Source: a virus
IMG/VR virus record: IMGVR_UViG_3300042396_000450
Location: 32,001-96,000 of that record
Length of the DNA: 64,000 nucleotides
Strand: one strand, 5' to 3'
A program made the position numbers and the translations under genes. This document shows positions 15,161-59,857 of the stretch, piece by piece. The notes beneath the pieces are model-generated. The model saw only the letters and a program-made list of their open reading frames with translations. It ran no database searches and was not told the origin of the DNA. The stretch's first letter is position 1, and every line of letters starts with the position of its first letter.

Positions 15161-15566
15161 CGTCCTCGTATTTAAACCTACTATAATAACGTTCCTCTAC
15201 TATATGTTTCTCACTATTTAATACACCATGTAATTTAATATTTCCCTCTTTAATTTGTTGATCTAATGCTAATTTAAGTAAAACTAAATCTATGTTATGT
15301 TTAGTAACTAGTTCATCTAAGGTATAACCTTTAGGTAAACTAGCTTCTTTTAACTGTAATTTAAATAGATCAAGTAATACTGGTTGCACATAATCACTAT
15401 GGCGTAATAAATAGGCGCGATTAATTGATTGTTCTATTTCTAATTTAAGCGTCTCTTCTTTTTTCTTACATTCATAAAGTTCATTTAATTGAGTTAAATA
15501 AACTGGTTTATTATCAACTAATGTTAGTTGAAGTAGTTCATTGATTGCTTTATCTAGGTTATTCAT
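15147..15566 (-). CDS. Hypothetical protein (possible winged-helix C-terminus)
   Basis: 139-aa ORF, coupled to the upstream gene by ATGA. Confidence 0.55.
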   Translation of the reverse strand: MNNLDKAINELLQLTLVDNKPVYLTQLNELYECKKKEETLKLEIEQSINRAYLLRHSDYVQPVLLDLFKLQLKEASLPKGYTLDELVTKHNIDLVLLKLALDQQIKEGNIKLHGVLNSEKHIVEERYYSRFKYEDATYS

Positions 15567-15814
15567 AGTGCGTTAAGTATGTCAAGGTAACTAACAAGTT
15601 TAATATCAGTAATAACATCTGGTAGATCACAGAATCTCACATTTAAATAATCTTCAACTAATCCATAATAACGTACTGTATTATAACCATTAGCTTTTAA
15701 ATAAATACCAATATTGTGTAGTGTAGCTGTTCTATCAGGTAATCCTTCTAATGGTGGTAATTTACCATTTAAAACATTATTAATAACGTCGCTAACTTGT
15801 TGTTTAGTTATCAT
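15563..15814 (-). CDS. Small protein with C-terminal tag (VSYLDILNAL)
   Basis: Shares its C-terminal motif with 15811, 25859, 56407, 56679 and 59706. Confidence 0.7.
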   Translation of the reverse strand: MITKQQVSDVINNVLNGKLPPLEGLPDRTATLHNIGIYLKANGYNTVRYYGLVEDYLNVRFCDLPDVITDIKLVSYLDILNAL

Positions 15815-16059
15815 AGTTTATCTAATATGTCAAGGTAACTAAGTTGTGGTAATTCTTTAACAGCAGATAGATTTATTATTTCTACATTACAAGTTTTCTC
15901 TAACCAAGCTATTGTAGTCATATTAAATGGGTTAGCTATAGCGGACATTTGATTATAAGTACGTCCACTTAATCTAATTGATGTAGGTCTATTACCACTT
16001 TCTTTATAAGAACATCGAATTAAATTGCGGATATATGATTGAGCTTCTTGTAAGTTCAT
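15811..16059 (-). CDS. Small protein with C-terminal tag (PQLSYLDILDKL)
   Basis: Same C-terminal motif family. Confidence 0.7.
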   Translation of the reverse strand: MNLQEAQSYIRNLIRCSYKESGNRPTSIRLSGRTYNQMSAIANPFNMTTIAWLEKTCNVEIINLSAVKELPQLSYLDILDKL

Positions 16060-16095
16060 ATATTATAATTACTCATATACACTATTTTCTTACTC

Positions 16096-19000
16096 ATGAC
16101 AACAACCTATAGTTCGGGTAAATTACAACTTACATTTAATTCAGGTAATGTATCTGTAGTTAATGGTTCAGGTAACTTAGGAGTTACAGGAACTTACTAT
16201 ATCTCTATTCAAGGTCGGAATCTAATTGGACTTAATCTGAATAGTACATTAGTTCCAGTTACTTTAACTACAACATCTACATTAACTATAACATTACCAT
16301 CATTAGCTAGTGGTGAAACTTGGTCTGACATAGTTATATCAGCATCAACTACTAATAACGTATCTGCCTTAACTCAAGTAATGGTAGTTAATAGTGCTGA
16401 TTTTAATTCGCCAGTTATATTAACTAGTGTTGAGTTGTTCAAGCTAACTACACTTGCTCGTACTGTAGCTAACTCTGCTGCATTACCAGCAACACCAATT
16501 CAGGGACTTATAAGATACATAACTAACCTCAACTACTACTATGAATACGATGAATACAGTACAGCAACTGTAGATAACTTAACTGTATTAACTGCAACTA
16601 CTGGTAGATGGCTTAGAGTAGGTGCAATTAGTACGTATATAACTGATACTACAGCTACAGATGGATGTGATCAAGATGTTCGCACACCTAATCTAATTGT
16701 TAATGCACCATCATATACTTGTGATGGTAGTAAAGGTGATGGAGTTACCTTCTGGTTACGTAATGAATTTAGCACTATTATTTCAAGTGGAACTAGAATT
16801 AGTTGTACTGTGCGATTATTTGAGGAAGATAAATCTCAATTGTTCGATAGTCTCCTAATACTAGAACTACTTGGTTATGTTAATTTAATAACTGGAGTAT
16901 TAGATGCTTCAGTTAGTAGTGGTGAAGTAACTTATCAACCTCGTAGTCAATGGTTAACATTACCAGAGGATCTCGACATTGGTTATGCTGCTGTAGTTAG
17001 AGTTAGTCCTAAATTCACCATTACTGATTTAGATAACAATGTTCCATATCTAGCTAACTTAACTACATACGTTACATTTGCTCCAACTAGCGGTATCTAT
17101 ACTCCTGGTGTATTCGGCAACTTAATTTACAACGAATATGATAAGTGGCGCATTTATTCTGATGTTGGACTTAGTGTAATTAAGAGTAAGGGTAGTGGAA
17201 TAGTTAATAATTATGAACTTAATGATATATCCGCCGAAACTATAACAGGGTTAAGTTCTAATACCGCCAACCAGTATATTTTTCTTACTAGTAATGGTAC
17301 TTCGTTCGCATCAACTACTAGTTCATTCGTTAGTGCAGTTAAGCGATGTGTAGTTAGTACAGTTAATGGTATAGGAACTCCAGTTAGTTATGGTAGCTTC
17401 GCGTTAAATAACACTAAGAAGTTATCTGTAACTGTTAATTATCCAACTAGTGTTAGAAGTAATTATCCTGATGCTCTTATTGCAGGTTCTAGTAAAGGTA
17501 AGTTTAATGCAACTAATGTTGTTATCTATATTAAGAATAGTAGTAATGCCGTATTCGTAACTGAAGTTAACATAACTCCATCTGCTAGTAATGATGTTTA
17601 TGTACTTAATTATAGTGACTTTACTAGTTCTACATTAGCAACACCATCTAGTAATTATGGTTTATATACACCATTAAGTGTAACTACTTCAACTCCATCT
17701 AACAGTAGTACATTTCCTACTGGTAGTTATGAAGTGTTTGTTGCATTTAAATACACTGGAGTTGTTACAGTTATTGATCATAGTGTTAGTGAGTTATATG
17801 AGATAACAAGTAACCTGAGTGAGTTATTCTCAACTAGTGCAACAGTATGGTATAGCGATAATGGTGTTCCTAGTAGTTTAATTGGTGAAGATGGTTCATA
17901 TTATCTTAATTATGATAATGCTAATATTTATAAGAAGGTTAATGATACTTGGAGTTTAGATGGAAATATTAGTGTTATTTCACCTTCATTTACTACTATT
18001 GCAGTTAGTGGACAAAGTAATGTAGTTGCAGATCAAACTAATGATAGTTTAACTCTAGTTGCAGGAACTGGTATTACATTAACTACTAATGCCACAACCG
18101 ATGCTATTACTATTACTGGAACTAGCGTCACTAATACATTTAGTACAATAACTGTAGCTGGACAATCTGATATAGTTGCTGATAATGGAACTGATACATT
18201 AACTATTGCTGCTGGTAGTGGTATTACCTTAACTACAAATTCTGCTACTGATACATTAACTATCGCAGGAACTGCTGTTAGTAATACATTTAGTACAATT
18301 GCAGTTAGTGGTCAATCTGATGTAGTAGCTGATAGTGCCAGTGATACTATTACGTTAGTTGCTGGAACTGGAATGACTATTACAACTAACACCACTACAG
18401 ATACTATTACTTTTGAAAGTAGTGGTGTTAATGTTGATGTTACGCGAACTTCTACAATGTCTAATAGTATTGGAACTGGTAGTAAGACGTTTACTTATAC
18501 TGCTAGTTCTAACTTAGGATGGTTAGTTAGTACGAGATTGCGTGCTGCGTATGATGTTTCTAACTATATGGAAGGTGTAGTTACTGCTGTTAGTAGTACC
18601 TCAGTTACTATTACATCAGATAATGCAGTTGGTAGTGGAACTTATACTAGTTGGAACATAACAATAGCTGGAGATAAAGGTTCTACTGGAAGTGCTGGTA
18701 GTTTAAATGCCGCATCTGGATTTATATTAACTCCTGTTGGAAGTCCCATTACTACATCAACTAACGAAGTTGGTTTCTATGTCGATAGCACTGATAACTT
18801 ATTTAAAACTAGAGACGTTAATAATGGTACAGTTAGAACATTAGCATCATTAAATAGAGTTCAAGCATTTACTCAAACACAATATGCTACACCTGTTATT
18901 AATAATTCTGCTACTGGGACAGTAACTTTAGACGGTAGTGCTAGTAATGTTTTCATACTAACTCTAACTGGAAACCTGACTCTGACCATGAACAACATTC

Positions 19001-19197
19001 AAGTTGGAGCAACTTATATCATCTACTTAATTCAAGATGAAACTGGTAGTAGAACTATTACACTTGATGCTATATTTAAACGATTAACTGGTGATACAAC
19101 TACAGTTAATACAACAGCTAATAAAGTTAATATGTTAACTGGAGTAGCTAGATCATCTAGTGCAATTACATTAGCTCCTATATCAGTTGAGGTTTAA
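16096..19197 (+). CDS. Tail fibre / baseplate-associated structural protein
   Basis: 1033 aa, T/S/G-rich. Contains three 50-aa repeats, GVPSSLIGEDGSYYLN, and a fibre-type C-terminal module (QDETGSRTITL). Confidence 0.8.
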   Translation: MTTTYSSGKLQLTFNSGNVSVVNGSGNLGVTGTYYISIQGRNLIGLNLNSTLVPVTLTTTSTLTITLPSLASGETWSDIVISASTTNNVSALTQVMVVNSADFNSPVILTSVELFKLTTLARTVANSAALPATPIQGLIRYITNLNYYYEYDEYSTATVDNLTVLTATTGRWLRVGAISTYITDTTATDGCDQDVRTPNLIVNAPSYTCDGSKGDGVTFWLRNEFSTIISSGTRISCTVRLFEEDKSQLFDSLLILELLGYVNLITGVLDASVSSGEVTYQPRSQWLTLPEDLDIGYAAVVRVSPKFTITDLDNNVPYLANLTTYVTFAPTSGIYTPGVFGNLIYNEYDKWRIYSDVGLSVIKSKGSGIVNNYELNDISAETITGLSSNTANQYIFLTSNGTSFASTTSSFVSAVKRCVVSTVNGIGTPVSYGSFALNNTKKLSVTVNYPTSVRSNYPDALIAGSSKGKFNATNVVIYIKNSSNAVFVTEVNITPSASNDVYVLNYSDFTSSTLATPSSNYGLYTPLSVTTSTPSNSSTFPTGSYEVFVAFKYTGVVTVIDHSVSELYEITSNLSELFSTSATVWYSDNGVPSSLIGEDGSYYLNYDNANIYKKVNDTWSLDGNISVISPSFTTIAVSGQSNVVADQTNDSLTLVAGTGITLTTNATTDAITITGTSVTNTFSTITVAGQSDIVADNGTDTLTIAAGSGITLTTNSATDTLTIAGTAVSNTFSTIAVSGQSDVVADSASDTITLVAGTGMTITTNTTTDTITFESSGVNVDVTRTSTMSNSIGTGSKTFTYTASSNLGWLVSTRLRAAYDVSNYMEGVVTAVSSTSVTITSDNAVGSGTYTSWNITIAGDKGSTGSAGSLNAASGFILTPVGSPITTSTNEVGFYVDSTDNLFKTRDVNNGTVRTLASLNRVQAFTQTQYATPVINNSATGTVTLDGSASNVFILTLTGNLTLTMNNIQVGATYIIYLIQDETGSRTITLDAIFKRLTGDTTTVNTTANKVNMLTGVARSSSAITLAPISVEV
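17989..18423 (+). repeat. Three tandem 150-nt (50-aa) fibre repeats
   Basis: F[TS]TI[AT]V[SA]GQS[ND][VI]VAD...D[ST][LI]T[LI][VA]AG[TS]G[IM]T[LI]TTN..TD begins at 17989, 18139 and 18289. Confidence 0.9.
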
Positions 19198-19199
19198 TC

Positions 19200-19892
19200 A
19201 TGTTTACTTTTCCAGTTGGTTTTTTTAATCCTATTGTTAGTGGTGGTGTAGATCCTTTTGCCGCAAACGTAGCTCTATTTCTGAAAGGCAATGGATCTAA
19301 TGGTAGTACAAATATCATTGACAGTTCACCAAATCCTAAAACAATTTCTGTTTTTGGCACTGCTCAAATTAGTACAGCGCAAAGTAAATATGGTGGGAGT
19401 AGTTTGTTTTCGACAGATACAACTTTGGGTAGCTTTGTACAAGCAACTACTACAATAAACTTGTCAAACTATACATTTGAAGTCTGGATATACCAGACAG
19501 TAGTATCTGATTGGACTTTATTTGCTGGTAGTATGCTTGGGGACGTTGATTTTAGTATTAATGGAAGTCAAATAAGAATAGGTAGAACAAACGTATCATG
19601 GGATATTACAACAAATGTAGCATTCACTTACAATACATTTCAACATATTGCTTTTTCTCGTTCTAATTATACTCAAAAAATATTTCTAAACGGATTAGAA
19701 GTATTTAGCAGTAATTATGAAATCCCACTTACAGCAACAAATCCTAGAGTAATGTGTACCAGAGATAATTATCAGGGGACGTTTGTTAGACAATTGTATG
19801 GTGGTTATGTAGATTCAGTTAGGTTAACTGATTCTGTTGGCAGGTATACTACTACTTTTAACCCTGAAACTGACACTTACTTGAATGTTTAA
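19200..19892 (+). CDS. LamG / concanavalin A-like domain virion protein (candidate receptor binding)
   Basis: VALFLKGNGSNGSTNIIDSS, AQISTAQSKYGGSSL, YTFEVWIY, FQHIAFSR...KIFLNG, GYVDSVRLT. Confidence 0.8.
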   Translation: MFTFPVGFFNPIVSGGVDPFAANVALFLKGNGSNGSTNIIDSSPNPKTISVFGTAQISTAQSKYGGSSLFSTDTTLGSFVQATTTINLSNYTFEVWIYQTVVSDWTLFAGSMLGDVDFSINGSQIRIGRTNVSWDITTNVAFTYNTFQHIAFSRSNYTQKIFLNGLEVFSSNYEIPLTATNPRVMCTRDNYQGTFVRQLYGGYVDSVRLTDSVGRYTTTFNPETDTYLNV

Positions 19893-19929
19893 TTATGAAA
19901 TTTGCTCAACAACTACTATCTAACTTATT

Positions 19930-20823
19930 ATGAACGAACGTAAATTAATAGATGAAATTAAACGCTTAGTTAACAATGATGTAATTATTGGTTACTATAA
20001 TGGAACTACATTTACTGACGATAATGGTAAAACATACGCTTCCAGCTATTTAGTAACTAATAATTCTCCTATTGGTAGAGGATTCATAGTTCCATATGAA
20101 GGTAAATGGTTAGTTGTAGTAGCTAATAATAATCAAGAGGTAAGAAAAAATATAATAACTAGTAGAAGGAAGATAAGTATTGAAGATAAACCTAAACTTA
20201 CTATTGATTATTTACTAGTTAACCCATTAATTAAATATGCTGGGACTATCATACCAGTAAATAACACATTTTATACAATTAGAGATAACAAATGGAAAAA
20301 GTATGAATTACCAGAAATAAGAGGATACTTAAATTATTATATTGATAGTAACTATGTTGTTATAAAAGGTGATGAAAAGGATGAGAGATTTAATCAATTA
20401 ATCGTTTTAAAAGATGACGTATTTACAACCTATACATATCCAGAAGAACTTCCTGTATTAAAAACATGGCGCAAAGATTTTTTTAATACTTATGATAAGT
20501 ATAAGGACTTTTATATTTATGGTAATCCTAGTAGTGGTATTAGTAAGATATTTACAGGGCGACAAAATAGATTATATAAATTATCCGGTATAAATGTAGA
20601 TTTTTTTTATGGATCTTCACGTTTAGATGACATTATTGAAGCATTAAGTTTAGAACAATCTATTAATCTAAATATTGTTTCATGTCGTTTTACTGAGGAT
20701 GACATTACTAATTGTAGGAAAGAACCATTTAAAGTGAAAAGTCCTAAATTAGATACTAATATTATTTCTCCTGAAGAAGTAAACAAACAAACTATTGTTA
20801 GCACTTATATTAAATTTCAATGA
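19930..20823 (+). CDS. Hypothetical late-strand protein
   Basis: 297-aa ORF coupled to the portal gene by ATGA. Confidence 0.55.
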   Translation: MNERKLIDEIKRLVNNDVIIGYYNGTTFTDDNGKTYASSYLVTNNSPIGRGFIVPYEGKWLVVVANNNQEVRKNIITSRRKISIEDKPKLTIDYLLVNPLIKYAGTIIPVNNTFYTIRDNKWKKYELPEIRGYLNYYIDSNYVVIKGDEKDERFNQLIVLKDDVFTTYTYPEELPVLKTWRKDFFNTYDKYKDFYIYGNPSSGISKIFTGRQNRLYKLSGINVDFFYGSSRLDDIIEALSLEQSINLNIVSCRFTEDDITNCRKEPFKVKSPKLDTNIISPEEVNKQTIVSTYIKFQ

Positions 20824-22061: not shown

Positions 22062-22368
22062 CTAAACTTTGCTTCTTACTTAATTTATTATTTAATCGCT
22101 CATGTAGATCATTTATAGAATCTTTATAAAATTTAAGTTCGTCCTTAAGTGAATCTACTGTATCCTGGGTATCCTGAATATTATACATACTTATAACCTT
22201 GTTTAATTGCATATTGAGCAGTTGCATAACCATCTAATTCCTTCTATCATGAGTTCCATCTCCTATCAATATAACTCCTTATTCTTTCAAAACTCTGACC
22301 AACGTAGAATCTAAGTGCTTCACGTAATTGATCAGGAGTTATATTAGGTATTGTTGATATAACCACAT

Positions 22369-23620: not shown

Positions 23621-23637
23621 GATTATAGTTAACTTAA

Positions 23638-25858: not shown

Positions 25859-26269
25859 TCATAGTGCATTTAATATTGATTCATATGTAACAGGTGTATC
25901 ATCATCATCATCTAATTCATTATCACCATCAAAGTCATCTAATATTTTTTCTAATTCAGCATACATATTATGATATTGATCGTAATCTTTATTACGTTTA
26001 GCTGCTTTTAGTAAATCATAGAAACTAGTGTATTTAGAATTAATAACATAGTCTACATAATCATAAGCCTCACTATCATCATTTAACCATTCTCGTAATT
26101 CATCATAACTATAATTATAACTACCGCAAGTGTCGTCATTAGCAATAATATCAAGCATTCTATCATCTGAATCATAGAATGATATATTACTACCTAATTG
26201 ATAATATAACTCTTGTGCTTTATCAGTAGATCTACTAGATAAATATGCTGCAAATTCATAAATGTCCAT
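25859..26269 (-). CDS. Acidic protein with C-terminal tag variant (PVTYESILNAL)
   Basis: D/E/Y-rich, with an acidic linker before the tag. Confidence 0.65.
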   Translation of the reverse strand: MDIYEFAAYLSSRSTDKAQELYYQLGSNISFYDSDDRMLDIIANDDTCGSYNYSYDELREWLNDDSEAYDYVDYVINSKYTSFYDLLKAAKRNKDYDQYHNMYAELEKILDDFDGDNELDDDDDTPVTYESILNAL

Positions 26270-32603: not shown

Positions 32604-33272
32604 TTAGTTATTAAATAAGTAAACACATCTATCAGTACCAATCGCAACTTCTAGAACTTTATTATCTTCATAATCAGTTCTATTAGATATTGAACATATC
32701 TCCATGTTAGTTGCCGCATGAATTACATCAACTGTTCTAGTTGAATAACTTGGTAATCTATCACTATCTTCAGTTCTAGTTTCACCAAGTAACTTAGTTA
32801 ATATACGTTGTATTGATGGTATAACTAACGTTGAATAATCCATCTTAGTATTAGATGAATAGATAATTTGAAACTCAAGTTGATAGAACTCTTTAAGTCT
32901 CATATTACTAACTGTTTTATCTTGTTCAATTCTAAATGACTTACCATGTTGCCATACAACTAGAGGTAATCTAACCTTACGTTTATTATGTGGATTTAAT
33001 AAGTGTTCTGCATAGACATAACTACCCATTGTAGTTTCTGGACGTAGAGTTAAGTCATCTAATTGAAATACATCATCGCTAGTATAGTTAGCGTTAATTA
33101 AATTAGATGGAGTTAATAATGGTGCTTCAACTTGAATTAACTCAAATGCACTATTGGCGGATTTAAGTGTTGTAGTTAACTCACTTACAATTAGATTTTT
33201 AATACTATCGCGTAATAGTATCTCTTCTTGTGACCAGAACATTAAACCATTGACATTATATAGATTCTGCAT
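32604..33272 (-). CDS. Stand-alone class II aminoacyl-tRNA synthetase catalytic core (GlyRS-like)
   Basis: LRPETT, motif 2 QHGKSFRIE...RLKEFYQLEFQ, EICSIS.R, motif 3 EVAIGTDR. No anticodon-binding domain. Confidence 0.8.
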   Translation of the reverse strand: MQNLYNVNGLMFWSQEEILLRDSIKNLIVSELTTTLKSANSAFELIQVEAPLLTPSNLINANYTSDDVFQLDDLTLRPETTMGSYVYAEHLLNPHNKRKVRLPLVVWQHGKSFRIEQDKTVSNMRLKEFYQLEFQIIYSSNTKMDYSTLVIPSIQRILTKLLGETRTEDSDRLPSYSTRTVDVIHAATNMEICSISNRTDYEDNKVLEVAIGTDRCVYLFNN

Positions 33273-39546: not shown

Positions 39547-40983
39547 TTAATCGTTTTCAAATTCAACAGTTAAATTATCTTCATCGTCTATTAAACTATT
39601 TAAGTCATCAGCAGCATCTCCAGTTACTGTACTAACTACAGTACCATCTTCTTCAACAATATTAATAGTTACGTTCATATCGTTAATTAATCCTATCTTA
39701 GTTATTTCACGTATTGTTCGATTGATGTAGTGATCATAATTAATGTTGTGGTCATCAGCATCATAATAATCATTGAACAATGTTACTACATTACCACTAG
39801 CATATACAACTTCTTTCTCACCTTGATACTCGATTGTCTCATATACAGCAGGTATATTAACTCTATCGGATACCTTAGTTGTGAAGTTCTTCATACGACC
39901 ACTAGCGGGATTAATGCGTCGTTCTGTCTCATATACAGCAGGAATTATGATGCGTTCACTAACTAATCTCTTCTCCCTCTTAGTACCTATAGTGACCTTC
40001 TTGAGTATGATATCGCGTCCAGTAGGATTACTCACAAAGAATCTGAGTGTCTTCTGTAACTCAGTTCGTTCAGTTACTAATCCATCTTCAATTAGATAGG
40101 AGTAATTAGTAAACTGACTACCTACTTTCTGACTAATACAGAAGTCATATATGTCCTTGTGACCTCGAATAAAGTCATTTGGATGTATTCCTTCTAAATA
40201 ATATTTCTGCAAGGCTAGAGCTACAATTGGAGCATCAAAGCCCTTAAGAATACCGTTAATTGGAAGATACTTACCATTACTGCTAGGTAAATCGTAAGAA
40301 AAAAGAGGTTCAAGTGTTGCTCCCTGTGGAACGAAACTACCCTTAATCTTAACTGTACCGTCAGTTTTACGCGCTAAATAATTATTGACATCTCGGCGTA
40401 CATATAAATCATACTCAGCATATTTAAAAGTAAACTTAGTTTCAGTTTCCCATTCCTCAATAATTGACTTAACTGAATCTACTTCTAACTTATGGATGTA
40501 CAACAATATACCATCTGTATTAACAGATATGATATTGTGGTTAGCTAAATGTAACCGTTCTATTATCTGTAATAGAAATAGTTGATTGTTAACAGTTGTT
40601 TTGTAAGTACATAACAAATCACTTAAAAGGAAATTAGCGTATCCAAACAAACCAAAACACGAATTGAGCGATATCTTGAGTCCGTACTCTAATGCAGCAT
40701 ATATTACACTTTCTTTCTTACGTTTATTATATGCCTTACGATCATTAAGTGCATCAAGTAATGTCTCAATAAATAATTCTAAATCTAAGTGTTCTGGTGC
40801 AATACCGTAGTTAATAATAGCTGATGGGTAAAATGAGAAGATATCCGCATCTAATAATACGTAGTCGTTTTCAGCTTTGAATATCCCTGGTTTATCAACA
40901 CTATGTAAACCTCCAAGCCCAAGTTGGATTGTTAAATCACCTATTGTTACGGGTGGTAATTTAAGATCAAAGTTTTTACTCAT
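39547..40983 (-). CDS. Family B DNA polymerase, polymerase half
   Basis: GLGGLHS, DIFSFYP, KISLNSCFG, NTDG, DVNNY, KIKG. Confidence 0.88.
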   Translation of the reverse strand: MSKNFDLKLPPVTIGDLTIQLGLGGLHSVDKPGIFKAENDYVLLDADIFSFYPSAIINYGIAPEHLDLELFIETLLDALNDRKAYNKRKKESVIYAALEYGLKISLNSCFGLFGYANFLLSDLLCTYKTTVNNQLFLLQIIERLHLANHNIISVNTDGILLYIHKLEVDSVKSIIEEWETETKFTFKYAEYDLYVRRDVNNYLARKTDGTVKIKGSFVPQGATLEPLFSYDLPSSNGKYLPINGILKGFDAPIVALALQKYYLEGIHPNDFIRGHKDIYDFCISQKVGSQFTNYSYLIEDGLVTERTELQKTLRFFVSNPTGRDIILKKVTIGTKREKRLVSERIIIPAVYETERRINPASGRMKNFTTKVSDRVNIPAVYETIEYQGEKEVVYASGNVVTLFNDYYDADDHNINYDHYINRTIREITKIGLINDMNVTINIVEEDGTVVSTVTGDAADDLNSLIDDEDNLTVEFEND

Positions 40984-41774
40984 GTTAGCTTTATCTCTTT
41001 TAATTGAGTTAGATATTCCTGAAGTTGCGGTGTCTTAAATGTAATAGCTGGATTAATTACATCCTTGAAATCAATAGTCTTTCTAACTGTCCTACCATAC
41101 TTAATCTTCTTAACATCAATATTAGGATTCTTAGCTTTAACTTTATCAACATATAACTTACGGAATAATTCCTTACCTATTCCAGAATCACTTAAACTAT
41201 TTAGATTAAGCTTATAACTCTCACTTAATAACTCACGCATCTCTAGTCGAGGTTTAAGATACTCAAGTACCTTATAAGTTATATCAAGATCATTCTTGTT
41301 GTAATCAATAAGTAAGTTAAGTTGATCTGGTCTAACTTCATCTAGATAATGTATGGGTAAATCTTGTATTCTATGATGTTTAAGATTAACTCCACACATC
41401 TTGAGCGACGTGGTGTTAAATCCAGCACGTAGAACTTCTAATACATCGTAAGAAACAAAGGGGAGGTCATACCTATATGGATTGCGGTCGCCATTAATTA
41501 GAGTTTGTGCAAATTCCCACAATTCTAACTTACTGATATTAGGATGACGTAAAAGATGCACTAATACAGCATCGTCAAAGTTCCATCCATTGAAGCTAAT
41601 TAATATAGAATTAGTTGCAATGAAGTTAGCTAAATCGCGCCTATCATCAGTATCGTCATACCATAGATAAGTCTTATATTCACTAGTTGCAAGTGAATAA
41701 GTAGTTAAGCAAAATAGGTTCTTGTATATCTCAATATCATATACATAACCATTGTCATATAATTTCTCTAACAT
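40980..41774 (-). CDS. Family B DNA polymerase, 3'-5' exonuclease half
   Basis: YDIEIY.N.F, FNGWNFD, SLK, YNKNDL. Confidence 0.85.
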   Translation of the reverse strand: MLEKLYDNGYVYDIEIYKNLFCLTTYSLATSEYKTYLWYDDTDDRRDLANFIATNSILISFNGWNFDDAVLVHLLRHPNISKLELWEFAQTLINGDRNPYRYDLPFVSYDVLEVLRAGFNTTSLKMCGVNLKHHRIQDLPIHYLDEVRPDQLNLLIDYNKNDLDITYKVLEYLKPRLEMRELLSESYKLNLNSLSDSGIGKELFRKLYVDKVKAKNPNIDVKKIKYGRTVRKTIDFKDVINPAITFKTPQLQEYLTQLKEIKLT

Positions 41775-45659: not shown

Positions 45660-45951
45660 GATGAACTACTCCATGTATTGTTAACCTATGTTCTATATCA
45701 CCTTTATAATCAATTAGAGTTACTAGAACTTCATCTCCTTCAAGTACCATATCTATAATGTAGTTATTATATGATGAACTTAATTGAAATAAGTCATACG
45801 TCTTATCTTTAATTAACTTAACTAACTTATCTAAATGTTCTTCTAATTCAGGTGTTAATTGCATAATACTTCTCAATGTAATTTCTATCTTTAGTAAACT
45901 CAGGTATTTCATTATCAATAATCCAACTACTTCTAGTTGTATCACCGACAT
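45646..45951 (-). CDS. Hypothetical protein (true start probably MQLTPE near 45864)
   Basis: The 5' part of the called ORF overlaps the Thg1 gene. Confidence 0.45.
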   Translation of the reverse strand: MSVIQLEVVGLLIMKYLSLLKIEITLRSIMQLTPELEEHLDKLVKLIKDKTYDLFQLSSSYNNYIIDMVLEGDEVLVTLIDYKGDIEHRLTIHGVVHHAHK

Positions 45952-46576
45952 TATAATAACTTTTAACTACACATCTACCACGTTTATTTGAAGTAGATAA
46001 ATCATTCCAGTTATAGCCTTGTTGAAAACATAACTCTTGTACTTCACTTGTTTTCTTACCTTGAAGTTGTTTATGTGGTATTAGAGATTGACCTAGTGTA
46101 TTAATTGAATTTCTAACTTGATCTTTCTGTCTCCAGATAAAGTAATTACATACATCAGATTCAGGTATATTAAAACTTCTACTATCAAAATAAGCACGTT
46201 TAATATCACCATTCCAAATTAAGTTACTATTAACTGTAAATTCAACACTTGCAATAGCGGCACTTATTGATTCTATTTTAGATTGATTATAGTTAAACCA
46301 TGCTTCACTAGTTATCTCTTTATAGTCATGTAATAGTAAACTTATTTCATCTGATTGAATATAAGCAACTTGTACATCTTGAATTTCCTCACATAACTTA
46401 ATAGCTGTTAAATTCATAACATTAATTAAGTTAGCATCAAACTTATTCTTCAATGGTTTAGTGTATGTATGAAACGCTTTACCATCGAGACGTATGATAA
46501 CAGGTGTACGTCTAGTTAAATAGTGAGTACATCTACTCTCGTAATAACCTTTAATTCTATCTCCAAGTGAATCCAT
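45848..46576 (-). CDS. tRNA(His) guanylyltransferase Thg1-like protein
   Basis: IIRLDGKAFH, YIQSDEIS, FDSR, YFIWRQ.D..RNS. Confidence 0.93.
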   Translation of the reverse strand: MDSLGDRIKGYYESRCTHYLTRRTPVIIRLDGKAFHTYTKPLKNKFDANLINVMNLTAIKLCEEIQDVQVAYIQSDEISLLLHDYKEITSEAWFNYNQSKIESISAAIASVEFTVNSNLIWNGDIKRAYFDSRSFNIPESDVCNYFIWRQKDQVRNSINTLGQSLIPHKQLQGKKTSEVQELCFQQGYNWNDLSTSNKRGRCVVKSYYNVGDTTRSSWIIDNEIPEFTKDRNYIEKYYAINT

Positions 46577-51139: not shown

Positions 51140-51142
51140 AAT

Positions 51143-51943: not shown

Positions 51944-51947
51944 TTGT

Positions 51948-52741: not shown

Positions 52742-52987
52742 TTAAACAACTCTAACACCTTTTAACTTATCAATTAACTTATTATCTATATCATAATTTA
52801 GATAATCAGACACTTGTTCACTTAATACATCTAATTCTCCAACTAAACTAGCTAAATGAGATAAGTATCTTAACTTATCGTTAGTTGTAGTACCAATTCT
52901 ATCTACATTAGCTAAGTTAGCAATAGATGTAGCAAACTTAGATATTGCATTTAATGTAACTTCAAGTTGATTATCGTTCTCTATCAT
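52742..52987 (-). CDS. Hypothetical protein
   Basis: 81 aa; MIENDNQL..T N-terminus. Confidence 0.55.
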   Translation of the reverse strand: MIENDNQLEVTLNAISKFATSIANLANVDRIGTTTNDKLRYLSHLASLVGELDVLSEQVSDYLNYDIDNKLIDKLKGVRVV

Positions 52988-53835
52988 TAGAAATTAACTC
53001 CATGTCCTACGTTAATAGTGAATAGTCCATTATCCCGCCACATTCTTAATACCTGTGGTCTATCATCAATTACAGCATGAACATTATAAACATTCTTGAT
53101 ATACGCTTCATATATCTCCTGTTTAACTACACTATCCTTACGTTGATCAAGTTCAGCACGCATATACAACGCATCATATCTAATGTTATGTTTATCTAAC
53201 CAACTAATAGTCTGATCTTTCCAAGTATCCTTACGTCCTGATACTAATACTATTTTATTACTTGGATAATACGACTTATATAACTCATAGACTGGTTCAT
53301 TAAGTAGGTCATCCTCGCACGTACTAGCATCATAGGGATTACGACCATTAAGTAGACTTAGAGTACCGTCAAGGTCAATTATGACGCAATCTGGAAGACC
53401 TTCTATTCTAGCTGCACTAGGAGGATCAACATACAGATATTTATCGTACATACCACGAATAACAGCTTCACCTACTGAGTTAGTTCGAGTTAGATCACGT
53501 TTAATGCACTCAGATAGAGGAACGGTAAGAAAACTATCATTGATGATTAATTCAGCTTTACCTTCAATTAATGCGGCAATTCTAGTCTTATGCTTTGGAC
53601 AAAGGTGCGTATTATCAAGTATCACATTATACCCATTACTAAGTGCCTCTAGTATTAGTAATTCCTCACATTGAATAACAAACTTCTCATTTTTCTTACT
53701 GTATACGCCGTTGTCCATCATGGTGCGAATATCGTCTTTATTAATACGCTTCCATCCAGGTACATCGGTAACTAATTGTATAGCGTATGTAGTTTTACCA
53801 GATCCAGGTAAGCCAACTGTCATAATTACTTGCAT
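52987..53835 (-). CDS. pseT: Polynucleotide 5'-kinase / 3'-phosphatase (T4 PseT-like)
   Basis: GLPGSGKTT...RINKDDIR kinase, and DLDGT...SGR...DDR HAD phosphatase. Confidence 0.93.
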   Translation of the reverse strand: MQVIMTVGLPGSGKTTYAIQLVTDVPGWKRINKDDIRTMMDNGVYSKKNEKFVIQCEELLILEALSNGYNVILDNTHLCPKHKTRIAALIEGKAELIINDSFLTVPLSECIKRDLTRTNSVGEAVIRGMYDKYLYVDPPSAARIEGLPDCVIIDLDGTLSLLNGRNPYDASTCEDDLLNEPVYELYKSYYPSNKIVLVSGRKDTWKDQTISWLDKHNIRYDALYMRAELDQRKDSVVKQEIYEAYIKNVYNVHAVIDDRPQVLRMWRDNGLFTINVGHGVNF

Positions 53836-54902
53836 AATTTCATCAACTCCTCAAAATTCTTTAACAACAACTTAGATAGTGCTTCTTTAACTGACTTACT
53901 ATGACCATCTCTAATTGAGAATAGGATAACTTTCCATTTGATGTTAGAGATAGCTATTGCAAACTGTTTCTTATCGGTGATTTTAGCGAACTCATTTAAA
54001 TCATGTTCAATTAACTCACATAACTTATTGTATTTAGTTAAGTAGTTATTGTAGATGCTACTAAATTCATGGAAGTAACTGATAAACTCATTACCTTCAC
54101 CTGTTCTAACTAACTCTAATATGTCACGTTTGGTAACGCTTGATTTAATCCTATGATATTTAACATAATCATCGTGTTTTAATTTAACTCGTTTCCAAGT
54201 ACACCATTCTACTATTACATAACCTTCATTATGTAATCCATCTAACTTAACTAACTCATCTCTAACTTCATCTATAGTTAAACCATATTCAAGATAGTCA
54301 ACTAACTTAAACGAAGTGAACTTAGGTTGTGCTATCGACTCCTCACGTAATGTAGTTCTATTTCTAACTCCAATTAAAGTTAATGAGTTACTACTATGTG
54401 ATACAACTACTGGATTAAATGGTGTACATAACTCAAACATATACGTATAGTTAACATCAAAGTCATCTAATTTATATGATTCTTGCATAAATACAGTCCA
54501 TGCAAGTTCAGCAAATGTAACACTATAATCAAGTATAGTTCCACCAGCATCAGGAGATCCAGTAGTTGCAACTAACCATTCATCATTGTAGTAATACATA
54601 ATGATTAGACTGCCATCTAACTTCTTATAAGCATAAGAGTTATCGAAGTCTATTTCTGCTGCACATGATTCACCATAGTTATAGAATCTATCAAATGGAT
54701 ATGCTACAACATTCCAATCATTAGCTTCATCTAATATTAATCCGCGACATTCAGTTACTATTGGATGATAATAGGGTGATGTAACATTCCAATAACATAA
54801 TCCAACTAGATTAGGATATTTAGTATGTCGTCTAACTTGTATTCCTAATTCGGCGGTTAAGTCTTTTAATGACTTAGTTCGGAGATATTCTTGTACTAGC
54901 AT
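53826..54902 (-). CDS. RNA ligase (T4 Rnl1-like)
   Basis: ECRGLI, PFDRFYN, KLDGSL, FEL, EGYVI, RVKLK. Confidence 0.9.
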   Translation of the reverse strand: MLVQEYLRTKSLKDLTAELGIQVRRHTKYPNLVGLCYWNVTSPYYHPIVTECRGLILDEANDWNVVAYPFDRFYNYGESCAAEIDFDNSYAYKKLDGSLIIMYYYNDEWLVATTGSPDAGGTILDYSVTFAELAWTVFMQESYKLDDFDVNYTYMFELCTPFNPVVVSHSSNSLTLIGVRNRTTLREESIAQPKFTSFKLVDYLEYGLTIDEVRDELVKLDGLHNEGYVIVEWCTWKRVKLKHDDYVKYHRIKSSVTKRDILELVRTGEGNEFISYFHEFSSIYNNYLTKYNKLCELIEHDLNEFAKITDKKQFAIAISNIKWKVILFSIRDGHSKSVKEALSKLLLKNFEELMKLCK

Positions 54903-55123
54903 ATTGGTTGAATAAAGTTATCCCAACTACGATTTATTGAATAATTATCAGCTATATGTTTTAATTGTCGCTTAGTTTGTTGTCTGATTCTATGACGAAT
55001 GTTACAAAGACGAGATTGATTATAATATCTATTATCATTTGGACAACTTCCAAACTTAATTAACACGCGTTTATTGTTAATCATCATTAAAAAGTGCAGC
55101 TATTACTAACTGCACTAACTAAG

Positions 55124-55366
55124 TTAAATTTCGCTAACTACATCATATCTAGATTTAAAAGAATTGTATCTTCTAGGTTCTAGATGAAATGATGGTAACT
55201 CTATTAATCCACGACATTCATGATAGACATAATTAGGACTTGATTGGCGAGATTCTACAACATGGATAACCTTAAATCCCGCATCATAAATTAATATAAG
55301 TCTATATGGATTGCCGGATCTATCGTTATTACGACTAATTACTTGATATGCTACAGCATCGTTCAT
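55124..55366 (-). CDS. Hypothetical protein
   Basis: 80 aa; ND.SGNP.R. Confidence 0.55.
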   Translation of the reverse strand: MNDAVAYQVISRNNDRSGNPYRLILIYDAGFKVIHVVESRQSSPNYVYHECRGLIELPSFHLEPRRYNSFKSRYDVVSEI

Positions 55367-56193
55367 ACAGGAATCTTCTTAGTTGCAGGTACAACTGGTA
55401 ATGGATTACTACCTAATGATGTGAATATCTTATCCCAATGTACAGTTAACTCTTTAGTTGTTGGATCTAATTCACTAATCACAAATTCACTATTACGTAA
55501 ATGTTCACTTCTAGCACCAGTAGCAATATTAGATTCATCAGTAAGAAAACTAATTATATTCTGATTCTTATTTTTCTTACTACGATACATATACCCAATA
55601 GCATCGGCGTTAGCTACTGTGTATAATTTAAGACTTCCTGTTAACTGAATATCCTTCACATCTAACTCTGTTTTCTCATCAGACGTTACTTTAATGTGAC
55701 CACTGAGAATAAGAGCTTTACCTGCTAAACCTTTAAATGGTTCAACGATGTCAATAAATGCCCGTCTAAGTAGACCATAACCAGCACCTTTAGGTAACTC
55801 AGTTACATCCTTTCCCGTGAAGTTCTTACCAATAGGCGACTTCTTATACTCGAATGTAGCCTTAGCAAGAGCAAGTGCTTCAATTGCAGTTAATGTATCA
55901 AGTGCAATGTAATCATATATGGGTTTACCAGCTTTAACGTTTTCAGCTTTAATTAACTTAGCTGTTTCTTCTAATAATGAACCTAAACCAGTACCGCTAG
56001 TAGCAGCTTCTTTGCGTAAGTTAAGTTTAGTACCATCATAATATTCACTACCATCTTCTAGGTCAATAAGTAGACTATTAGGTAATTTAAGTAAATTTGA
56101 CGACTTACCTATTTTGGTATTACTTAGTAACACTAAAATACGTGGATCTGTATTAGCTGCAACTGTACTTGTTCTTGGTAATATTAAAGCCAT
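55363..56193 (-). CDS. AAA_24 / Sak4-like ssDNA-annealing ATPase
   Basis: KIGKS, LLIDLEDGS, IALDTLT, GAGY..LR, ILSGH, ADAIGY. Confidence 0.8.
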   Translation of the reverse strand: MALILPRTSTVAANTDPRILVLLSNTKIGKSSNLLKLPNSLLIDLEDGSEYYDGTKLNLRKEAATSGTGLGSLLEETAKLIKAENVKAGKPIYDYIALDTLTAIEALALAKATFEYKKSPIGKNFTGKDVTELPKGAGYGLLRRAFIDIVEPFKGLAGKALILSGHIKVTSDEKTELDVKDIQLTGSLKLYTVANADAIGYMYRSKKNKNQNIISFLTDESNIATGARSEHLRNSEFVISELDPTTKELTVHWDKIFTSLGSNPLPVVPATKKIPV

Positions 56194-56200
56194 GATAAAT

Positions 56201-56407
56201 CTATCCTAATTGTTCTAAATAAACTGGTTCAACTACGTCATTAATCTTAACTAAAGTACATTTAACATTTAGTGCTAATTGTATTTCAGCTACTTCACCA
56301 TATAATACCACACTTTCAACAGTAGCTGTAGTATTTAGAAAGTGAACTCTATCGCCTTTAGTTAAGGTTTGACCATATTCACGTAACACGGTTGTCATTA
56401 TCCACAT
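56201..56407 (-). CDS. Hypothetical protein
   Basis: 68-aa ORF. Confidence 0.5.
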   Translation of the reverse strand: MWIMTTVLREYGQTLTKGDRVHFLNTTATVESVVLYGEVAEIQLALNVKCTLVKINDVVEPVYLEQLG

Positions 56408-56682
56408 TAGAGTTTCTCCAGTATGTCAAGGTAATTTAATTGAGGTTCATTAGTATCAGGTAACTCATTATATATATGCCACTCTACATCTTCAAAATGT
56501 CTATCAAAGTCATTTTCTAATTCATCCTCATTGTCTTCTAAATCAGAAAAATCAGCAGATATCCTCCTAACACTGTAATGATTTATTTGAGCTTGAGTTA
56601 ATCTATTATCTATTTCCTCAATATTTCCACCATATACATTATGTTCAATCATCCAATCTCTAATATCTTTTTTAGTTATCAT
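56407..56682 (-). CDS. Small acidic protein with C-terminal tag (PQLNYLDILEKL)
   Basis: Tandem paralogue of 56679. Confidence 0.75.
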   Translation of the reverse strand: MITKKDIRDWMIEHNVYGGNIEEIDNRLTQAQINHYSVRRISADFSDLEDNEDELENDFDRHFEDVEWHIYNELPDTNEPQLNYLDILEKL

Positions 56683-56930
56683 AATTTATCCAGTATGTCA
56701 AGATAGTTAATAGTAGGTTCACCGTCTGGTAAATTGTTATAAATACTATTTCCGATCTCTCTAAAGTAAGCATCAAACTTAGATTCCCAATTATCATCAA
56801 AGTTACATGATATACTTCTAAGTGTTGTATCACCTTTATCTCTTAGTCGTTTGTCTACTTTTTGAACACAATCAACATTATATACATTGTTATTAATCAT
56901 CCAGTCTCTAACATCTTTCTTAGTAAACAT
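56679..56930 (-). CDS. Small protein with C-terminal tag (PTINYLDILDKL)
   Basis: MFTKKDVRDWM versus MITKKDIRDWM. Immediately downstream of clpS. Confidence 0.75.
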   Translation of the reverse strand: MFTKKDVRDWMINNNVYNVDCVQKVDKRLRDKGDTTLRSISCNFDDNWESKFDAYFREIGNSIYNNLPDGEPTINYLDILDKL

Positions 56931-56932
56931 AC

Positions 56933-57205
56933 TTATCTCTCAACAGTTACAGTTAAACCTTCAGCTACCAATTGATCTCTACTTAATTCAGCAAACGGTT
57001 CGGTATATTCTCCTATTAGAGCTTTACCATTAAGATGAGCATCCATCATAATTTGATAACTCTTATCATTACTGAATCCCATAACACTACTTAATATCTC
57101 TACTACAACTTCAGCAGGAAATATGCTGTCATCATGTAGAATCAACTTAACCATTGGAGCATTGTTAACAAATGTAAATGGCTCTCTATCTAATACTGCA
57201 TTCAT
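56933..57205 (-). CDS. clpS: ClpS adaptor
   Basis: KLILHDD...EVVVEIL...IMMDAHLNGKALIG.Y...AE...L...GLTVTVE. Confidence 0.85.
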   Translation of the reverse strand: MNAVLDREPFTFVNNAPMVKLILHDDSIFPAEVVVEILSSVMGFSNDKSYQIMMDAHLNGKALIGEYTEPFAELSRDQLVAEGLTVTVER

Positions 57206-57552
57206 GATAAAGTCTCCTCGTAATTGTTTAATGCTACTTGATATACGAATAATGCAGCTATTTGACCACGTAATACTGCATTACGATTAATTATCCATTG
57301 TTGATAATCAATTTCAATGTAATCTAGAGCAGGATCACTAGATTCTAATCGGAGTTGATGAAGACGATGATCTGCATTACGTTGAGCTATTTGTAATTCA
57401 ATATCTCGAATTAAATACTCACATTTAAGTATGGCAGTTCGGAGTCTACTTAATGTTAGAAATTTAGGAAACTCTGTCCAATTGATAGTTTTAATGTCTA
57501 GAAAGCGAGGGATTTTGATGCGTTGGTCTGTTCCAGTTGTAGTAGTAACCAT
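57202..57552 (-). CDS. Hypothetical protein
   Basis: 116-aa helical ORF. Confidence 0.55.
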   Translation of the reverse strand: MVTTTTGTDQRIKIPRFLDIKTINWTEFPKFLTLSRLRTAILKCEYLIRDIELQIAQRNADHRLHQLRLESSDPALDYIEIDYQQWIINRNAVLRGQIAALFVYQVALNNYEETLS

Positions 57553-58958
57553 GATATGACAGCCTCAATTCGTGTTTTAATAGTTGGATATTTGTCAGGT
57601 GTCGTGTTGTTGAATGATTTACATTGAACTAATCTCCAATCAGTTATATTATCAGTTCTAGAATATTTACCTTGAGTAAATTCACAAGTAAATCTATACT
57701 TATCAATCCTAATACTGAAGATGCGGCGATTCTCATTAAGTGAATTAGAATAACCACCTACACAGTGATTATTGTATCTACCTTCATCTAGTAACTGAAA
57801 TGACGTAACTAACTCAATTACTTCACATTCTAGGTAATGTCTATTAATTGGTAATGGAGTTACAAGTACCTTATTTAATCTAGTTTTAGCAGAGTTAATT
57901 TTTTCAGTTATCTTTAACTTAATTAAATCAATACATAGAGAATCCGAATAAAAGTCATTCTCCAATATACCGATAACCCATTTACCTTCAACAGTAACTA
58001 GATTCTCAATGAACTTAAATAACTCTAATTGTTTATCTAGATTAAGATACTTAAACCAATTAGTAATTTCATAATGTTCATTAGTAAACTTACCTAATCG
58101 CGCCAATTGAGTTTTCCAACCTTTTGGAAGAGTAAGAAAATAGGTATCATTAGTTATGCAAGCATTACATAACGTGTAGTATTTAAGTAACTCTAACCAT
58201 TGTTCCTTCTGATGCTTCTTAACTCCATTACCATATAGTCGTTGAAATACTATGTTCCAGTGTTTATCATTAAATGCTAATGACTTTAACTCAGGTATTA
58301 CATAATTAGAAATAACTTCAATTGGTTTAGTATCAACTAATTTAAAGTAATTAGATATCAAATTCAACTCATCTTCATTAATAAATGATGGTACTTTAAT
58401 AGCTGTTGGAGCATACCGTGGATTAATATGTGCGATATAACCAACTATCTTATCTACATCTAAATAAGCATCGGGATATTGACGTTTCTTCTTCAGTAAT
58501 CTAAATAAAGTAAATTTAGAGGTATTGAAGTTAACTACTTCTATTTGTCGTGTTACTAGAAATGCCGCAAATTCTGGTCTATATATTAATTGTTTAGTAG
58601 CTAGATCAATACCAATCATGCAACAATTAATATCGAATGTGTCAATGACATTAGTTAGTTTACTATTAATTGAATAAATATCAACATAGTTAATATTATC
58701 AACTCTACTAACATTAAAGATTGTAAAATGCTTATCTTGGTAATATAAGTTTTTAATTTTATGAGTTGTTCGATAATAGTCACAATTTTCTTGTATAACT
58801 AATCTAAATACATCTATATCACCATACTCTGATTTAAGTCCAGTTACTGCACTATATACAATAGATGCAATTGCTCCACCAGCTACAACACCTTCATTTG
58901 GTAGTTCTGGTAATTGAGATAGAATAAAGTCACTTGTGATAGTATCTAAAGTCATCAT
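57498..58958 (-). CDS. Nucleotidyltransferase (CCA/poly(A)-polymerase-like head) fused to a PcfJ-like domain
   Basis: VAGGAI...GDIDVF, FDINCC; C-terminal L..EG...NHCVGGY...IFSIR. Confidence 0.7.
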   Translation of the reverse strand: MMTLDTITSDFILSQLPELPNEGVVAGGAIASIVYSAVTGLKSEYGDIDVFRLVIQENCDYYRTTHKIKNLYYQDKHFTIFNVSRVDNINYVDIYSINSKLTNVIDTFDINCCMIGIDLATKQLIYRPEFAAFLVTRQIEVVNFNTSKFTLFRLLKKKRQYPDAYLDVDKIVGYIAHINPRYAPTAIKVPSFINEDELNLISNYFKLVDTKPIEVISNYVIPELKSLAFNDKHWNIVFQRLYGNGVKKHQKEQWLELLKYYTLCNACITNDTYFLTLPKGWKTQLARLGKFTNEHYEITNWFKYLNLDKQLELFKFIENLVTVEGKWVIGILENDFYSDSLCIDLIKLKITEKINSAKTRLNKVLVTPLPINRHYLECEVIELVTSFQLLDEGRYNNHCVGGYSNSLNENRRIFSIRIDKYRFTCEFTQGKYSRTDNITDWRLVQCKSFNNTTPDKYPTIKTRIEAVISWLLLQLEQTNASKSLAF

Positions 58959-58994
58959 AATTAAAATGGGGTAAATTAATTACCCCAACTAAGG

Positions 58995-59459
58995 TTACTC
59001 TATGTCTAATAAATCATCTACATCTTCTACTACATCTTCTGCAACTGGAACATCAGTTAATTGATTTACAACTAATGCAAGTGATTCACCTTTAGTTTTC
59101 CAATCAACTAAACTACTAATTAACTTCAATAACTCAACATTAGTATAATTAAGTTCCTTAAACTCATCAACTATACGTGTTGAAGCATTCATAACTTCAG
59201 GATATAATGTGAGTATTGCTGCTAGTATTAATTCAAACTTACTCTTAATGTCAGTACCACATGACTCAGCATACTTGAGGATACCTGTTTTACTACGTTT
59301 AGGAACACCTGCTATTAAGGCTGCTATCTTTTTTCTAGTTTCATCATCCAATCCCAACTCAACCAATGAATTTTCTATGTTATTAGCCACGATTGATTTC
59401 TCCAAAATTATAAGTGATCTTGCGCCTATCCTATCTGCTGCTGTTACGGGAATCGGCAC
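58995..59459 (-). CDS. Hypothetical protein (start possibly GTG 59390)
   Basis: Acidic C-terminal tail. Overlaps a + strand gene head-to-head. Confidence 0.55.
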   Translation of the reverse strand: MPIPVTAADRIGARSLIILEKSIVANNIENSLVELGLDDETRKKIAALIAGVPKRSKTGILKYAESCGTDIKSKFELILAAILTLYPEVMNASTRIVDEFKELNYTNVELLKLISSLVDWKTKGESLALVVNQLTDVPVAEDVVEDVDDLLDIE

Positions 59460-59730
59460 TTATTTTCTTACCCGTAACAATAATGGTGATAAACTATCTC
59501 AACGTGAATACGACTATATAACTCAAGAGCGTAATCGTATTCAAGTATTAATAAATGATGAAATAACTCAGATACGTAAAGATAAGGATGAATTACGTAC
59601 TGAATTGATTGAGATACGTAATAAGTTAACTGAGTTAGAGAAAGTTGAAGATGAATGTCAACTTAAACTATATCAGGCTCAAGTTATTATTACTCAACTA
59701 CGGGATCATAACGCATCTAATATGTCTTGA
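59377..59730 (+). CDS. Membrane-anchored coiled-coil protein (holin/antiholin-like architecture)
   Basis: MLLATIDFSKIISDLAPILSAAVTGIGTYFL, then a coiled coil. The 5' extension to 59209 looks like antisense shadow. Confidence 0.5.
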   Translation: MLLATIDFSKIISDLAPILSAAVTGIGTYFLTRNNNGDKLSQREYDYITQERNRIQVLINDEITQIRKDKDELRTELIEIRNKLTELEKVEDECQLKLYQAQVIITQLRDHNASNMS

Positions 59731-59857
59731 TAACTAACATTAGATGATGTAACATTATCATCTAATAAATCAGCGTATGTTAGATGAAGATAATCCCGTA
59801 AATCTTCTCTATACTTATACCTACTCGTCGAAAATATCCACCTTCAAACTTAGTCAT
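59706..59857 (-). pseudogene. Frameshifted small gene with C-terminal tag (VSYQDILDAL)
   Basis: MTKFE, then a 1-nt shift into WIFSTSRYKYREDLRDYLHLTYADLLDDNVTSSNVSYQDILDAL. Confidence 0.55.

Follow-up and report, generated by a model that had tools for sequence, protein, structure and literature searches.

A common C-terminal motif on small, mostly dissimilar proteins of an uncultured phage lineage

Short end-peptides shared by several proteins, which let one hub handle many clients, are known from a few model phages, for example from the T4 clamp and the T7 polymerase. In T4, gp43, gp33, and gp55 carry acidic-hydrophobic C-termini behind divergent flexible linkers; these termini are interchangeable and bind one clamp (PMC2988020). 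Here, we analyzed a 64,000-nucleotide stretch of viral DNA (the window) that comprises bases 32001-96000 of one 111,623-bp viral contig (IMG/VR record IMGVR_UViG_3300042396_000450; 32% G+C; ~92% complete according to CheckV). Small genes scattered over this stretch, with bodies of several kinds, end in the same short peptide, which we refer to as the tag. Relative contigs are labeled L (L010, L016, and so on) and database proteins P (P0028, P0042, P0043, P0044, and others); L001 denotes sequence of the same contig outside the window.

The consensus of these gene ends, [STN]-Y-x-[DS]-I-L-x-x-L-stop, is matched exactly by six minus-strand open reading frames (ORFs) in a stop-to-stop frame listing of the window. 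These are the six C-termini that a first-pass annotation had reported, and all were confirmed in position, sequence, and strand (Table 1). The pattern Y..IL..L occurs nowhere else in the window, terminal or internal, in any of the six frames. When the entire contig was scanned, a seventh copy was recovered outside the window. In total, the genome contains six intact small tagged genes, five of them within the window, and one broken remnant. Based on residue frequencies from the 155 called genes, 0.005 Y..IL..L C-termini are expected among them, versus six intact genes observed, and at most one such C-terminus appeared in any of 2000 shuffles. Internal occurrences in the called genes number zero, compared to approximately 1.2 expected. 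The carriers fall into six body types (families A to F) of 54-192 amino acids (aa). Every copy is on the minus strand amid early and replication genes, a placement that lends no support to the suggestion that the tag is a capsid-loading signal.

A set of 33 distinct sequences yielded 19 distinct 12-residue tails, in which Tyr at position -7, Ile at -4, Leu at -3, and the terminal Leu are invariant (19/19). Position -8 is Ser, Asn, or Thr in every distinct tail, position -5 is Asp in 16 tails and Ser in 3, and position -2 is mostly Asp, Asn, or Glu. The residue after Tyr varies (Leu, Gln, Glu, Lys, or Thr), as does position -1 (Lys, Ala, Arg, or Leu). Spacing of the invariant residues is i, i+3, i+4, i+7, and the hydrophobic moment of the tag is 0.47-0.66 when calculated as a helix versus 0.05-0.43 as a strand. 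From this pattern, we infer an N-capped two-turn amphipathic helix with Tyr, Ile/Leu, and Leu on one face and acidic residues on the opposite face. A membrane-targeting helix was ruled out because the tail is net acidic.

The tag follows a Pro/acidic linker whose length and sequence differ even among orthologues, with the tail remaining constant. Family A linkers read DTNEPQ, DGEPT, and DEPE; that of family E is mainly acidic and D-rich, spans 14-20 residues, and differs in length between orthologues. Most copies also contain an [FY]-x-x-L-P-D box 8-25 residues upstream of the tag. AlphaFold2 (AF2) models, obtained for families A and E only, place a short helix on the tag at residues 84-90 and 129-135, respectively, each preceded by a stretch with a predicted local distance difference test (pLDDT) score below 40. 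A short helix following predicted disorder is suggestive of a tethered peptide, although it is not proof of one.

We then considered whether the protein or the DNA is the conserved entity. As the first-pass annotation had noted, four copies have a DNA core in common: TATGTCAAG is found exactly four times in the window, each time within a tag. Conservation could in principle lie mainly at the DNA level, with the gene ends serving as recombination handles or as a regulatory site and the peptide being a by-product. Consistent with this idea, CTTGACATA, which is common to four copies, includes TTGACA, and a junction, ...GAT AAA YTA TGA TAA CTA AA, is common to non-orthologous tandem pairs and flanks the body swap described below. 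In addition, the Asp codon at tag position -5 is GAC in all six cases (15563, 15811, 56407, 56679, 59706, and L001:8482), whereas GAC accounts for 14% of Asp codons in the genome. However, the three copies that do not contain TTGACA keep the peptide, and the motif is invariably in frame and at a constant distance from the stop codon. Across tag copies, the same residues are spelled with different codons (TAC/TAT; CTT/TTA/CTG/CTA), and in the diverged relative L016, the changes GAC to GAT, CTT to TTA, and CTG to TTG leave the residues unaltered. A promoter or other regulatory DNA function was rejected, as no TTGACA-containing tag was listed in a sigma-70 promoter scan and promoter-like sites were not enriched (41 versus 37.4 expected). 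Taken at the level of sequence comparison, these patterns show that the tag is maintained by selection on the protein, and a mainly DNA-level explanation has a very slim chance of being correct. The uniform use of GAC may be accounted for by common descent of the tag DNA or by small gene conversions between tags. The family C tag of L016 has TCA (Ser) in place of GAC, a three-base change with otherwise identical flanks.

The bodies that precede the tag were compared by pairwise scoring with the last ten residues removed and by profile-profile alignment (hhalign) with and without the tail. Pairwise scores were significant only within family A and within family B; in the latter, 15563 and a body found in L016 (slot 2, see below) are clearly homologous (z 9.4). 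With full-length families, hhalign returned probabilities of 87-94% for A-B, A-D, B-C, and B-D, but these matches extend over the last 12-30 residues only. Once the tail was cut, the only body similarity left was a weak one between A and B, confined to the first 13 residues. Without the tail, neither method detected homology that ran the full length of all bodies, within the limits of shallow alignments. The architecture first proposed for these proteins is supported by these comparisons: the C-terminal amphipathic helix is constant, the Pro/acidic linker before it varies, and the bodies have no homology detectable by hhalign after removal of the tag.

The accompanying claim that the bodies are dissimilar, apart from the 56407/56679 pair, holds for the tail-cut comparisons and needs qualification elsewhere. 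Families A, B, and C share an N-terminal motif, M-x-T-K-x-[QDE]-[IVFY], and a hidden Markov model (HMM) of it finds only these three families among the 155 genes, and not D, E, or F. The same three families share a C-terminal module of ~30 residues, and the [FY]-x-x-L-P-D box is present in most copies. Because A, B, and C share both ends, they may be diverged paralogues in which both ends have been kept; D, E, and F share the tail only. The structure models are too poor for a comparison of folds. An alternative explanation would involve one fast-diverging paralogue family whose conserved terminal helices form part of its own fold or a homo- or hetero-oligomer interface, with no outside reader. 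The M-x-T-K-x-[QDE] N-terminus, the ~30-residue span of C-terminal likeness including the box, the full-length hhalign probabilities, and the homology of 15563 to the L016 body all point in this direction. In contrast, the hhalign matches are confined to the last 12-30 residues and are lost with the tail, D, E, and F have no N-terminal similarity, the family E tail is set off from its body by a D-rich linker of variable length, and the AF2 models, albeit of low confidence, leave the tail unpacked. We regard a single paralogue family as unlikely overall, with an appreciable chance of being right.

Direct evidence for exchange of bodies comes from the slot downstream of clpS. In L016, clpS is followed by an A-type gene and then by a gene with a B-type body, whereas the second slot of the window is occupied by an A-type body (56407), with the B-type gene at a distance of 40 kb. 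The L016 slot-2 gene shares with the 56407 slot both its 5' junction (...GAT ARA TTA TGA TAA CTA AA) and its last 40 bases together with the downstream DNA. Its interior, up to ATTCTGTGATTTACCAGATG, matches 15563. As read from these alignments, the body in the post-clpS slot has been replaced between conserved gene ends by recombination. The earlier proposal that the tag is shuffled as a cassette is supported by this locus, where a B-type body lies between the 5' junction and the 3' tag and downstream DNA of the 56407 slot.

Separately, the N-terminus of family A (first 28 codons of 56407-56682 and 56679-56930; TKKDIRDWMIEH...) resembles a T4-type RNase H encoded on an unrelated viral contig (L018:9416-10366), with 11 of 12 residues matching in the helix that precedes the H3TH motif of this enzyme. 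The hhalign probability is 94% (E 1.5e-7) over 28 columns, and the remainder matches weakly (z 4, one member). This match is partly ascertained, because the L018 locus was found via the same motif. The idea that family A arose by splitting off the C-terminal portion of a phage RNase H was rejected: only the first 28 residues match well, and the genome has no match to the FEN N-domain or RNaseH_C.

To assess the distribution of the tag, we built a profile from the last 36 residues and compared it with 1.84 billion representative proteins (E<=0.001). Twelve proteins were returned, ten of which belong to the 6-7 gene families described here; the other two are long proteins in which only short stretches match. 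Three members used as queries in word-indexed searches retrieved close relatives only (55-96% identical), and scans of IMG/VR and metagenomes returned only contigs of the same lineage. Among cultured phages, blastn and tblastn detected no relative of the region, of a tagged gene, or of the ClpS homologue. Pfam and PHROGs gave no significant match to the tagged proteins, and the ESM Atlas gave no usable match. In bacterial and archaeal genomes, 21 matches to the tail pattern were found, approximately the number expected by chance, and none is a genuine gene end or related to this phage, so they provide no clue to the host and no host protein that is mimicked. On the basis of these searches, the tag is private to one uncultured phage lineage.

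The strict terminal position of the motif, its helical spacing and N-cap, the variable linkers, and the unlike, exchangeable bodies lead us to read the tag as a tethered docking peptide for one common receptor, an interpretation to which we assign a little less than an even chance. The helix would insert into a hydrophobic groove of this receptor, and several different effector or binding bodies would thereby act at one place. Candidate receptors would include Clp components of either host or phage, the AAA protein of the phage (through its N-terminal region), and a host hub protein. Several observations weigh against a docking peptide. No receptor has been found, and all known carriers belong to one narrow clade. 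The N-terminal motif and ~30-residue C-terminal module common to A, B, and C leave room for terminal helices that belong to one fold of diverged paralogues. Both AF2 models are of low confidence (pLDDT 54 for family A and 42 for family E) and too poor for a fold search. Finally, P0028 and P0037 carry extra residues past the tag, indicating either that a free C-terminus is not strictly needed or that these sequences are faulty.

Table 1. Tagged genes of the phage and other genes discussed in connection with the tag (window coordinates unless otherwise stated)
Feature	Position	Strand	Length	Remarks
Family B tagged gene	15563-15814	-	83 aa	End VSYLDILNAL; start overlaps stop of 15811-16059; family also includes the L016 slot-2 body and P0042
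Family D tagged gene	15811-16059	-	82 aa	End LSYLDILDKL; orthologue P0044
Family E tagged gene	25859-26269	-	136 aa	Very acidic; end VTYESILNAL behind D-rich linker
Family A tagged gene	56407-56682	-	91 aa	End LNYLDILEKL; gene no. 2 downstream of clpS
Family A paralogue	56679-56930	-	83 aa	50% identical to 56407; end INYLDILDKL; directly downstream of clpS
Family C remnant	59706-59857	-		End VSYQDILDAL; start ORF from ATG near 59857 (MTKFEGG...)
Family F, seventh copy	Genome 104482-104646 (L001:8482-8646), outside window	-	54 aa	...TSYKDILNLL; ...QPTSYKDILNLL; database relative P0037 reads through stop
ClpS homologue	56933-57205	-	90 aa	PF02617, E 8e-13, 48.4 bits vs cut-off 23; short N-terminal extension
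ClpP homologue	11157-11663	-	168 aa	Short N-terminus; Ser, His, Asp triad intact
AAA (PF00004) protein	62756-63901	-		230-aa uncharacterised N-terminal region; candidate reader; few kb from family C copy
R2K-clade ATP-grasp (PF14243/PF18299)	60657-61433	-		Predicted peptide/protein ligase; two genes upstream of family C remnant; candidate modifier

A link to Clp had been proposed on the grounds that two tagged genes lie directly downstream of clpS and that the phage also encodes ClpP and an AAA ATPase. Each of these observations is correct (Table 1), and the translation of the ClpS homologue shows that HDD and H of the N-degron pocket have been retained. The link itself, however, amounts to the adjacency of two genes: the other five copies are elsewhere, clpP is 45 kb from clpS and adjoins a ferritin-like gene, and cultured phages have no related clpS. 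Since gene adjacency is its sole support, docking on Clp in particular is no better supported than docking on other receptors and has, in our estimate, a slim chance of being correct. The genes near clpS and the tagged pair include a Sak4-like AAA_24 ATPase, an RNA ligase, and a PNKP.

If a protease reads the tail, the tag could be a degron by which host or phage ClpXP, ClpAP, Lon, or FtsH removes early proteins on schedule, with the neighboring ClpS as a modulator. The tail is strictly C-terminal, has a non-polar end (AL, KL, or LL; RL also occurs among the tails), and is preceded by a flexible linker, the phage encodes both ClpS and a ClpP with an intact triad, and ssrA-type C-terminal degrons act in a similar manner. 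Known C-terminal degrons nevertheless need only the last 3-5 residues, whereas here conservation covers nine residues and the invariant ones span eight positions with a helical pattern and N-cap. ClpS reads N-termini rather than C-termini, and five of the seven copies are away from the clp genes. We consider a degron unlikely, with a modest chance of being the explanation.

Alternatively, as the first-pass annotation had suggested, the tagged proteins could be SspB-like adaptors: each body would capture a different host target, and the tail would dock on a Clp unfoldase, ClpP, or ClpS, leading to degradation of the targets. The succession of body, flexible linker, and short C-terminal peptide is that of SspB, and both here and in L010-L016, a translationally coupled pair of copies immediately follows clpS. 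This evidence consists of adjacency within one narrow clade; moreover, the tail is acidic-hydrophobic, whereas that of SspB (LRVVK) is basic. The phage does not encode a Clp-type unfoldase, no solved structure is detectably related to the AAA protein, and cultured phages offer no related clpS for comparison. Adaptors of this kind are a doubtful explanation.

A further variant of the docking idea would treat the tail as a virus-specific address code read by a phage-encoded machine (the AAA protein, ClpS/ClpP together with a host unfoldase, or the R2K ATP-grasp), to which the swapped bodies would be delivered or by which they would be processed; we attach a small probability to it. If true, it would represent an undescribed way for a phage to organize host takeover. 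The ATP-grasp also raises the possibility that the tail is a handle for an enzyme that modifies or ligates C-termini, as part of a phage protein-tagging system. In favor of this, members of the R2K clade are predicted to attach peptides to proteins during phage-host conflict, with protein targets predicted and none named (PMC4431377). In this genome, an R2K.2/R2K.3-type ATP-grasp is encoded two genes away from the family C copy, and the tail invariably ends in a free carboxylate. The ATP-grasp enzymes known to modify proteins (RimK, LysX, and TTL) act on acidic, Glu-ending C-termini, whereas this tail ends in Leu, and there is no co-occurrence evidence. A modification handle appears highly improbable.

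The family C copy at 59706 had been described as a frameshifted gene. Our analysis gives a different picture: the locus consists of a 25-codon start ORF and, downstream in a different frame, 45 codons that lack a start and end in the tag, and it derives from a larger gene that has lost its middle. Intact relatives encode 84-93 aa (L010) or ~192 aa (L016; P0043), and a three-way DNA alignment reveals nested internal deletions. In the window, the deletion has brought GAAGGTGGA next to TATTTTCGACG, with a microhomology (ATTTTCG) at the joint. DNA downstream of the deletion is identical to L010, and the loss is therefore recent. At the same locus, a long plus-strand ORF (59209-59730; 160-173 aa, with a hydrophobic segment followed by a coiled-coil-like region) is kept in relatives. 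It overlaps, in antisense orientation, a putative 154-aa acidic-tailed minus-strand gene (58995-59459; ...VEDVDDLLDIE) as well as the family C tag, of which it covers the final 25 bases.

Additional features of the genome were noted alongside the tagged genes. The ClpP homologue belongs to a minus-strand four-gene island in the structural region (window 9969-11663), together with a 159-aa protein of no assigned function, a ferritin-like protein (179 aa), and a 59-aa ORF. A possible tRNA-repair set on the minus strand (window 32604-33272, 45848-46576, 52987-54902, and 57498-58958) comprises proteins resembling a class II aminoacyl-tRNA synthetase (aaRS) core and Thg1, in addition to PNKP and a T4-type RNA ligase. 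The set also includes a 486-aa protein that, judged by eye, appears nucleotidyltransferase-like at its N-terminus (GG...DIDVF). Outside the window, L001:331-5143 (minus strand) holds two tandem pairs, each consisting of a CobS/MoxR-like AAA_5 ATPase (391-392 aa) and a 381-432-aa protein ending in SGGTYR(E/N)(K/H)I. A MoxR/vWA reader was rejected, as the partners of both CobS-like ATPases have no detectable vWA match. The DNA polymerase (phrog_1252, family-A-like) is split into a 264-aa N-terminal part (40980-41774) and a 478-aa polymerase part (39547-40983), both encoded on the minus strand with a stop/start overlap.

Among described systems, bacteriophage T7 gp2.5/gp4 and bacterial SSB tails resemble the tag in having an acidic linker and a hydrophobic tip at the C-terminus as a shared handle for partners. 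In these tails, an acidic run is followed by a terminal aromatic residue, and binding occurs in an extended conformation, whereas the tag would be an eight-residue N-capped helix ending in Leu, and its carriers are not recognizable DNA-handling proteins. The β-clamp motif (QL[SD]LF or QLxLxL; Leu at position 2, a hydrophobic pair at 4-5, extended) was rejected as well, given that the position after Tyr is variable and the invariant residues follow the i, i+3, i+4, i+7 pattern. An HbYX or HslU-type activating C-tail was also rejected; Tyr is at -7 rather than penultimate, and the carriers are small and have no ATPase domain.

The conserved C-terminal peptide of Escherichia coli FtsZ reads DYLDIPAFLRK. 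It shares with the tag Y-L-D-I and a Leu four residues after Ile, and both peptides are C-terminal behind a flexible linker, that of FtsZ being hub-binding. In FtsZ, the Leu before Asp is conserved and the Tyr variable, whereas in the tag, the Leu position is variable and the Tyr invariant. Mimicry of the FtsZ tail, with its D-I-P-x-F-L core, was rejected, as no Pro or Phe occurs in any of the 19 distinct tails. SspB with its C-terminal ClpX-binding (XB) peptide offers a likeness in the order of body, flexible linker, and C-terminal peptide, as far as the low-confidence models allow, and in the presence of encoded Clp components. It differs in that XB is basic-hydrophobic and the tag acidic-hydrophobic, and the tagged proteins have no homology to SspB and the phage encodes no Clp unfoldase.

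The T4 proteins gp43, gp33, and gp55 remain the closest architectural precedent: proteins of different function have in common a short C-terminal peptide, hydrophobic and acidic, that is attached through a flexible linker of divergent sequence, an arrangement also found here. In this phage, however, no gp45-type or beta-type clamp was detectable at E<=10 when all six frames of the genome were searched with PF09116, PF02916, and PF02767, the ~92% completeness of the record leaving a small gap. The polymerase does not carry the tag either (its parts at 39547-40983 and 40980-41774 end in ...DNLTVEFEND and ...LTQLKEIKLT, respectively), and the invariant residues of the tag are helically spaced. 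Without a partner, the tag stays a well-documented motif. A reader, if found, would simultaneously assign functions to a number of orphan early genes, supply a portable docking peptide, and show how a phage can diversify its effector set by cassette exchange. Compared to the few model phages, the present lineage would add a new case from uncultured viruses, with a sharply defined predicted helix, selection on the protein, and exchange of bodies between constant ends.

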